Shown: in pieces, positions 13,281 through 13,440 of the stretch
Layout of the letters: each line of letters starts with the position of its first letter
How positions within the stretch are numbered: the first letter of the stretch is position 1
DNA from: Alphaproteobacteria bacterium
Lineage (GTDB): Bacteria > Pseudomonadota > Alphaproteobacteria > Bin95
Reading direction: 5' to 3'
DNA length: 64,000 bases
NCBI GenBank assembly: GCA_964291285.2
Contig: OZ219788.1
Span: 64,001 to 128,000, forward strand
Translations under genes and position numbers: made by a program
Notes under the pieces: generated by a model
The model's input: the letters and a program-made list of their open reading frames with translations, nothing else
Databases searched by the model: none
What the model was told of the DNA's origin: nothing

Positions 13281-13440
13281 TCCCGTCCTTGCAAATGCGG
13301 TCTCACACTGCGGACCAAGCGACTGTTCGGGTTCAAAGGAACAGCGGACGGGGAACCATGCTCTCCCGCGGTCTTCATAACCTGGGTGCTAGCGGTCTCC
13401 CGTCCGCTCCCGCTGTTGCGACTATAGCTGCAACAACGAT
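13281..13440 (-). ncRNA. Predicted bridge RNA of the IS110 element
   Basis: 5' hairpin plus two stem/internal-loop modules whose loops match the donor junction (ACAGTCGCT) and the target (GCGGGAGAG); ends approximate. Confidence 0.8.

Follow-up and report, generated by a model that had tools for sequence, protein, structure and literature searches.

A CT-bounded IS110 element of the IS621 type in an alphaproteobacterial genome and the bridge RNA very probably encoded in its left end

The 64,000-nucleotide stretch analysed here (the window; contig OZ219788.1 of GenBank assembly GCA_964291285.2, an Alphaproteobacteria bacterium) carries on its minus strand an insertion sequence of the IS110 group whose recombinase gene is preceded by a long non-coding left end. 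The question raised by this locus is whether that left end specifies a bridge RNA, with one internal loop reading the chromosomal target and another reading the joined ends of the element itself (the donor), as had been claimed in an earlier, sequence-only reading of the window. Our comparisons of sequence and predicted structure make it very probable that it does: the element would be an IS621-type member of the IS110 group whose left end encodes a bispecific bridge RNA. The earlier claim of an IS621-type bridge-RNA system is upheld by the homology of the protein, by a covarying three-module RNA, and by guide segments that track both the element's ends and its flanks.

The element occupies positions 13455-12330 on the minus strand, with one CT core at 13455-13454, a body of 1,122 bp at 13453-12332 and a second CT core at 12331-12330. 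Its left end of 174 nt (13453-13280) is non-coding, its right end extends just 14 nt beyond the stop codon, and terminal inverted repeats are absent; this combination of a long left end, a short right end and a 2-bp CT core is the layout of IS621-type elements. The features that define the element and its site are as follows.

12330-13455, minus strand: whole element with both CT cores (13 identical genomic copies, all CT-bounded; one empty-site contig)
12350-13279, minus strand: recombinase coding sequence, 310 amino acids (Pfam, PDB and NCBIfam matches), stop codon TGA at 12349-12347
11621-12331, plus strand: 5' part of a Suv3-like helicase gene, 237 whole codons (Pfam DEXQc_Suv3, 3.6e-26)
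13456-15276, plus strand: 3' part of the same helicase gene, starting on a whole codon (from the list of open reading frames)
13456-13459, minus strand: left target half of this copy (flank sequence CCAC; three of four bases match the guide GCAC)
12323-12329, minus strand: right target half of this copy (flank sequence CTCCCGC)

The insertion splits its host gene in frame. The 5' frame of the helicase ends on a whole codon at 12331 (...QAGE), deletion of 12332-13455 restores the reading frame, and the insertion accounts for the split Suv3-like helicase gene in the annotation; a Pfam scan of the 3' part (13456-15276) gave no match at 1e-3. A contig from run X4, which bears a different organism label, joins 12329 to 13454 with two ambiguous bases, skipping 1,124 bases, and this join is exactly the predicted empty site. 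The genome of the window (five contigs, C1 to C5; 6.1 Mb; 68% G+C) holds 13 copies of the element, all 100% identical, and CT lay outside the element at every junction scored (12 left and 13 right).

The recombinase is a full-length homologue of IS621 and ISCro4. It matched DEDD_Tnp_IS110 (PF01548, 3.4e-24) and Transposase_20 (PF02371, 4.2e-20) in Pfam, scored 222.9 bits against a cut-off of 140 with NCBIfam NF033542 ('IS110 family RNA-guided transposase'), and aligned end to end with PDB 8wt6 (IS621; residues 4-307, E = 1.5e-38) and with PDB 9t56 (ISCro4; from about residue 3 or 4 to 307, E = 2e-38). Residues D9, E53, D95, D98 and S234 align to D11, E60, D102, D105 and S241, the catalytic residues named for IS621 (PMC11208158). 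Both parts expected of the class are there: a DEDD RuvC-like domain at the N-terminus and, at the C-terminus, a Tnp domain with its catalytic Ser. The protein had been described at the outset as an intact and compact (310 aa) recombinase; intact it is, but compact overstates the case, as IS621 itself has 326 aa (PMC11208158).

RNA positions are counted by subtracting the window coordinate from 13456. Three modules follow one another on the minus strand.

13411-13438, minus strand: 5' stem-loop (RNA positions 18-45), seen in the minimum free energy (MFE) fold and in 62 of 62 relatives
13343-13408, minus strand: target-binding loop module, outer stem 13408-13394/13357-13343 and inner hairpin 13382-13370 (covariation)
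13282-13331, minus strand: donor-binding loop module, outer stem 13331-13328/13285-13282 and inner hairpin 13316-13299 with a bulged A at 13303

All the stems, loops and matches described in the sequence-only reading are present in the DNA. The 5' hairpin (13438-13411) has 9 bp including one G-U pair; the outer stem of the target module, in the register first proposed, pairs at 13 of 15 positions with one A-C mismatch and one G-T, and its inner stem is GGTT/GACC. The structure was compared across relatives, of which the species-genome collection holds at least 378 by recombinase homology. The best 80 loci were used (61-93% protein identity, mostly Alphaproteobacteria), giving 81 sources with the window; 77 of these were parsed by motifs, and the structural comparison rests on 62 distinct left ends. 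Across the 62, 74.5% of the cells of the proposed structure pair, compared with 67.5% for shuffled alignments and 38-51% once the 3' partners have been shifted along, and the covariation score of 0.264 was twice that of shuffled alignments (0.132) and was reached by none of 500 shuffles. An alignment fitted with a covariance model gave 77.5% paired cells and a covariation score of 0.275, values that lean towards the structure the model assumes.

The support is distributed over the modules. In the outer stem of the target module 80% of cells pair and 12 of 15 pairs have changed on both sides; in the model-fitted alignment the donor inner helix is 96% paired, with four of seven pairs changed on both sides, and the outer CCC/GGG is 91% paired. 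De novo, RNAalifold recovered both the stem of the target loop and the inner stem of the donor module. The stems first read from the letters therefore hold up as covarying helices, but two details of them do not: RNAalifold prefers a bulged A58 (13398) to the A-C mismatch plus wobble, a register in which G59-C103 is G-C in 61 of 62 relatives and position 60-102 covaries (C-G in 39, A-U in 17), and the fourth pair of the donor CCCG/CGGG stem is kept in just 46 of 62. The 5' hairpin segment forms at least seven pairs in all 62 relatives (median -17.2 kcal/mol, median z -2.0), and all nine of its pairs change on both sides, yet only 45-58% of cells pair once aligned, with 57.6% in the model-fitted alignment, because the hairpin varies in length and register. 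RNAalifold also proposes a small hairpin inside the left donor guide (A129-T134: A-U in 49, G-C in 10), which may reflect a single clade. An isolated 62-nt hairpin elsewhere in the genome (C1:7926-7987, minus strand; intergenic; locus L124) matches the target-loop module alone (35.5 bits, model positions 49-111), with no 5' hairpin, donor loop or recombinase gene nearby, and may be a relic or an independent element.

If the second internal loop is a donor-binding loop, its strands should reproduce the ends of the element. The two segments concerned are these.

13318-13326, minus strand: left donor guide (ACAGTCG, then CT), with the same sequence as 12338-12330, where the right end meets the core
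13288-13296, minus strand: right donor guide (RNA positions 160-168), AU, two skipped bases and GCAAG, pairing with CTTGTAT of the left end

The left donor strand had been noted as identical to the far end of the element plus its core, and indeed ACAGTCGCT occurs in the window at 13326-13318 and 12338-12330 and nowhere else. The 7-mer of the left donor guide recurs at a right end, followed by CT, 1.0-1.3 kb downstream in 73 of the 77 parsed loci (no right end was found in L085, L088, L091 and L105), and the agreement between guide and right end persists through three sequence variants, including ACGGTCG and ACAGCCG. The core portion of this guide reads CT in 40 and CC in 20 of the 62 left ends. 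For the right donor guide, the sequence-only reading paired a contiguous TGCAAG (13293-13288) with CTTGTA (13455-13450) through one G-T wobble. The pairing is there, but comparison favours a discontiguous guide. The pairs from C1-G168 to T5-G164 are kept in all 62 rows, the fifth as U-G in 57, U-A in 3 and C-G in 2; positions 162-163 vary while the left end stays unchanged, and the invariant T7 and A6 offer partners to A160 and U161. In IS621 nine RNA bases pair discontiguously with seven donor bases (PMC11208160). We therefore prefer a guide made of 13296-13295 and 13292-13288; the contiguous form (T163 with A6) is possible for this element and is disfavoured by the variable positions 162-163 in relatives. 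The donor read from the genome is ACAGTCG-CT-TGTAT, and the second internal loop thus matches the joined ends of the element in both its left and right halves.

The IS621 rule for the first internal loop is that left guides pair with the bottom strand and right guides with the top strand, each including the core (PMC11208160). Under this rule the guides of the present element are placed as follows.

13384-13392, minus strand: left target guide (RNA positions 64-72), effective part GCAC plus C at 13389-13385; second core-guide base C, not T
13361-13369, minus strand: right target guide (RNA positions 87-95), AG core complement at 13362-13361; 13367-13363 supported across the family, the sixth base (13368) within the genome

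The right loop strand of this module, GCGGGAGAG (13369-13361), is the exact reverse complement of 12331-12323, as first reported. Comparing the flanks of the genomic copies, which the sequence-only reading had proposed as a check, bore it out: the 13 copies share the target GCAC-CT-CTCC(C/T)G. In the 12 left flanks the four bases before the CT are G (8 flanks), C (11), A (11) and C (12); on the right, all 13 flanks start with CTCC, after which position +5 is split between C (9) and T (4) and a G stands at +6 in 10 of 13. Among relatives, 51 distinct guide-flank pairs with 31 distinct right target guides were compared. The right target guide matches its right flank at +1 to +5 in 46-50 of the 51 pairs and at +6 and +7 in 11 and 10, and the mean match is 5.12 of 7 for cognate flanks versus 2.78 of 7 for non-cognate ones. 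The AG core complements are invariant in both right guides (62 of 62 each).

The left target guide GCAC+C (13389-13385) had been missed in the sequence-only reading. A register with one spacer base was best for 35 of 46 distinct loops in relatives, followed by offset 2 in seven loops, offset 0 in three and offset -3 in one. Offset 0, in which the core guide would adjoin the inner stem, was rejected for this element, where it fails; a 93%-identical relative (L031/L032) fits it better, a comparison of two sites only. The first internal loop thus matches the target on the predicted strands, except at the second core base of the left guide.

In IS621 each loop also carries handshake bases (PMC11208158), and the corresponding positions can be found here.

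13359-13360, minus strand: handshake guide of the target loop (C96, A97), C96 invariant in 62 of 62 (rule from PMC11208158)
13286-13287, minus strand: handshake guide of the donor loop (G169, A170), position 169 able to pair with target -1 in 61 of 62

Donor position 7 is G in all 62 relatives, and C96 is its complement; for position 169, pairing with target -1 is possible in 61 of 62 pairs, one of them an A-with-T case. Towards their cognate DNA the two bases are mismatched (C96 against the target C, G169 against the donor G), so each base suits the non-cognate strand, as the handshake arrangement demands. The invariant C to the left of the core in all 12 left flanks is explained by the pairing of G169.

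One might put these matches down to coincidence in a window rich in G+C, and regard the stems as incidental. The 9-mers taken singly would allow it: ACAGTCGCT is expected 0.33 times per window, with two or more matches in 4 of 100 shuffles, and CTCTCCCGC 1.97 times, with three or more in 32 of 100. Since single 9-mer matches thus lie within chance for 64 kb, their significance has to come from position and comparison. There, coincidence is already contradicted, because the matches fall exactly at the element ends and in the internal loops, the flank motif is common to 13 copies, and stems and guides covary in 62 relatives; we regard it as having next to no probability, even with a single-sequence fold that beats shuffles by a z-score of just -2.2.

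That fold is one of several observations that weigh against a bridge RNA and that have to be set beside the evidence above. The MFE of the left-end RNA, -70.3 kcal/mol, beats shuffles only modestly, with 6 of 200 folding equally well. Folding the region had been suggested as a check, and its outcome was divided: the 5' hairpin and the target module are reproduced, but the donor module is folded differently, so that of the 5' stem-loop and two internal-loop stem-loops expected of the class the single-sequence fold agrees on the first two alone, and the donor module draws its support from comparison. The same fold pairs parts of both target guides with each other. Stable pairing of the guides had been named beforehand as a result that would count against the claim; some pairing between the target guides is built into the design, as the core is read by both, each on the opposite strand to the other. 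In the left target guide the second core base is C where T is expected, as it is in 7 of 62 relatives; the left target positions that match number about 4.6 of 9 per site, and the left half-site of the copy in the window is CCAC rather than GCAC. Four of the 81 sources (L059, L071, L097 and L098) were unparsed and four of the 77 parsed loci lacked a detected right end, the empty-site contig has a depth of 2.4 and comes from one run only, and an Rfam scan of the sense strand of the bridge RNA matched no family. In the opposite orientation Rfam returned RF02234 (sX15) at 28.1 bits over 13307-13421 on the plus strand, which was rejected because it lies below the 55-bit gathering threshold. Similar antisense, sub-threshold hits appeared in 2 of 15 relatives (29.9 and 29.8 bits; L038:1367-1507 and L031:1356-1507, both minus strand). 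The Xanthomonas small RNAs sX15 and asX7 are reported to be plasmid-borne and antisense to each other, Stenotrophomonas having 10 homologues (PMC3300014), and may themselves be an IS110 left end; in a relative on a Xanthomonas hortorum plasmid (L131, with a truncated transposase gene), neither sX15 nor the left-end RNA model was found.

A different account of the same structure is that the left end acts only as a structured mRNA leader for translational control, the protein choosing the target and the matches between loops and flanks being by-products. Two observations fit such a leader. The MFE fold pairs part of the proposed guides, and AAGGA (13290-13286, minus strand), inside the donor loop and 6 nt before the ATG, resembles a Shine-Dalgarno sequence of the recombinase. 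Yet the loops change with the flanks over 31 right target guides, matching +1 to +5 in 46-50 of 51 pairs, and with the right end through three variants, and a protein-only code would not give base-for-base complementarity on the strands prescribed by the IS621 rule. We consider a leader function by itself highly improbable, and a bridge RNA by far the better explanation. The same AAGGA, likely the Shine-Dalgarno sequence of the recombinase by its sequence, takes in the handshake bases as well as the last base of the right donor guide and its core complement; the same nucleotides would then have to serve both translation and guiding, in competition. Among the papers listed by a full-text literature search none was on this topic by title or abstract, from which we do not claim that none exists.

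How might such an element move? By the IS621 model, it would leave the chromosome as a circle joining the right end, one CT core and the left end. One further feature bears on this step.

12345-12350, minus strand: TTGACC, a -35-like hexamer overlapping the stop codon, at a fixed position in the right ends of relatives

Of 55 distinct right ends, 53 have TTGACN at this position and two have TTGATC. The circle would place TTGACC of the right end 17 nt upstream of TATCTC (13451-13446) in the left end, a weak -10, and the resulting junction promoter would drive one transcript serving as both bridge RNA and leader of the recombinase mRNA. The recombinase (DEDD RuvC-like domain and Tnp domain with Ser234) would bind the bridge RNA. 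Its donor loop would hold the circle junction, with AU..GCAAG pairing the top strand CTTGTAT, and its target loop would hold the chromosomal GCAC-CT-CTCC(C/T)G, with GCAC-C pairing the bottom and (C)GGGAG-AG the top strand. Strand exchange would take place at the CT core, C96 and G169 pairing as handshake bases with the incoming non-cognate strand. In this scheme we infer transcription, RNA-protein binding, catalysis and the junction promoter. Two results on promoters add to the opposing observations set out above: TATCTC matches the -10 consensus at 3 of 6 positions and fails the criteria of the scan, and a promoter scan of the integrated element found no promoter-like site.

The lack of a promoter-like site in the integrated copy leads to a further alternative, namely that the element belongs to the class but that this copy, perhaps with the whole family in the genome, is inert and relies on RNA and protein supplied in trans. 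Because it runs antisense to the helicase gene, the copy in the window may be silent and may depend on other copies; excision of IS621 requires read-through transcription (PMC13626964); the RNA gene is broken in 4 of the 13 copies; and 5 perfect 12-mer targets in the genome are unoccupied. All of this suits inertness. Against it, the 13 copies are identical, nine of them have an intact RNA gene and open reading frame, the catalytic residues are intact, and identical copies can complement each other in trans. These features point to very recent activity, and the 13 identical copies show a recent copy-number expansion of an intact element. Inertness is accordingly the less favoured possibility, though one that deserves some weight, and a recently active element is the reading we retain.

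The four broken copies are interrupted by other insertion sequences, all within RNA positions 47-77 in the target-loop region. C3:1142108-1143558 contains an IS256-type element with a 9-bp duplication, C2:1145259-1147405 a DDE_Tnp_1 element with a 6-bp duplication, and C3:1703455-1706995 a 3.5-kb insert with Transposase_29 and IS1595-type genes and a 5-bp duplication; the fourth (C2:~1295742) is cut at position 63 beside a DUF772/DDE_Tnp_1 open reading frame, its left part being absent from the assembly. Within the left end, the region of the breaks, which includes GCTAGC, has the highest A+T content.

A genomic repeat of roughly 235 nt with at least 56 copies accounts for about half of the element's insertion sites. 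The repeat starts with a promoter-like CTTGAC-N17-TACAAT/TATGAT and contains CGCGCGCGCAATCAGG (e.g., L132:163-400 and L133); copies of it are occupied by the IS110 element at C1:641329, C1:860063 and C3:1277668, with the element antisense to the promoter-like start. On the strand of the element the core is GT in most repeat copies, whose sequence is GGGAGAC-GTGCG; the element sits in, or still has open to it, only copies reading GGAGAG-GTGCG, whose core is CT. This minority variant of one position in the repeat is its preferred target. An Rfam scan of the repeat gave no match. The target read on its other strand, GGAGAG-GTG, also resembles a ribosome-binding site, an idea that was rejected: open reading frames from that GTG are mostly short, and the shared context is the genomic repeat.

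A perfect 34-nt palindrome (13176-13209, minus strand), found as a self-match, lies inside the recombinase coding sequence at codons 24-35 and would form a 15-bp hairpin. In 16 distinct relatives 87% of its cells pair, and 9 of 15 pairs have changed on both sides versus 2.7 in shuffles (none of 500 reaching the observed value); some of the compensatory changes alter amino acids. The hairpin may be an RNA 3' end or processing site, a translation brake or a protein-binding site. Taken jointly, the coding-sequence hairpin, the Shine-Dalgarno overlap and the apparent dispensability of the second core base of the left guide could mark an alphaproteobacterial subfamily with regulatory and guide rules undescribed for IS621, a proposal we put forward as doubtful. 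Were it true, the hairpin could fix where a longer bridge RNA stops at its 3' end, or hold back translation of the recombinase, one transcript would have to choose between translation and its role as guide, and an unneeded left second core pairing would shift target specificity to the 7-8-nt right guide.

The neighbourhood of the element, like the genome as a whole, is rich in insertion sequences; a 468-aa DDE_5/DDE_Tnp_1 transposase open reading frame (9785-11188, minus strand) lies about 1.1 kb away. In an Azospirillum metagenome-assembled genome (L084:883-999, minus strand), an ALIL pseudoknot (RF01497, 113.5 bits) sits just upstream of an IS110 copy; ALIL is a frameshift element of IS3-type transposases.

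Among known systems the closest in design is IS621 of Escherichia coli, with its 177-nt bridge RNA. The two share an RNA in the long left end, here a predicted one, a short right end and a CT core; a 5' stem-loop followed by target loop and donor loop; a discontiguous right donor guide and handshake bases; left guides that read as the top strand and right guides complementary to it; and a -35-like hexamer in the right end that would suit a junction promoter. They differ in that the recombinase has 310 aa here and 326 in IS621, and in that the right target guide, of four bases in IS621 (PMC11208160), comprises the core plus five or six bases here. IS621 has a left target guide of nine bases (PMC11208160), against an effective four and a single core base in this element. 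Among the left guides here the second core base varies, and in the target left guide it is unpaired; the donor loop of the present element ends 2 nt before the start codon. These differences are quantitative, matters of degree. ISCro4 (PDB 9t56) is alike at the protein level, on which alone it was compared.

The closest sequences overall, within the best 80 of the at least 378 relatives, come from alphaproteobacterial genomes (93% protein identity). The nearest named relatives are the ISMno7/ISMex17 families of Methylobacterium and Methylorubrum plasmids, with 65-66% DNA identity over 67-70% of the element; the Methylobacterium relatives carry the same RNA architecture, and both families are too distant to be the same insertion sequence. 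ISPpu9 and ISPpu10, IS110 elements of Pseudomonas putida, insert into repeated extragenic sequences, and the present element resembles them in that about half of its insertions lie in a genomic repeat; the repeat, however, is of another family, and only its minority CT-core copies are targeted. The IS1111 group belongs to the same recombinase superfamily; there the seekRNA or bridge RNA lies in the right end, which is long, and the subterminal inverted repeats are long too (PMC11208160). Membership in that group was rejected: the right end here stops 14 nt after the stop codon, and the left-end RNA model matches left ends only.

In the work of Durrant et al. (PMC11208160) a bridge RNA was predicted for 85.7% of the catalogued IS110 elements, guide-flank pairs were analysed in their thousands, and orthologues with longer right target guides were noted. 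With the class, its mechanism and the approach to finding the RNA in print since 2024, and thousands of orthologues analysed, the biological surprise is small: this is a clear but ordinary further orthologue of a known class of bridge-RNA recombinases. Extending the right target guide improved IS621 (PMC11208158, PMC11208160), which makes orthologues with naturally longer right guides of practical interest. To the known systems the locus adds a natural bridge recombinase with clearly placed boundaries, from an alphaproteobacterium of high G+C content; its 13 natural insertion sites reveal the mismatches that it tolerates.

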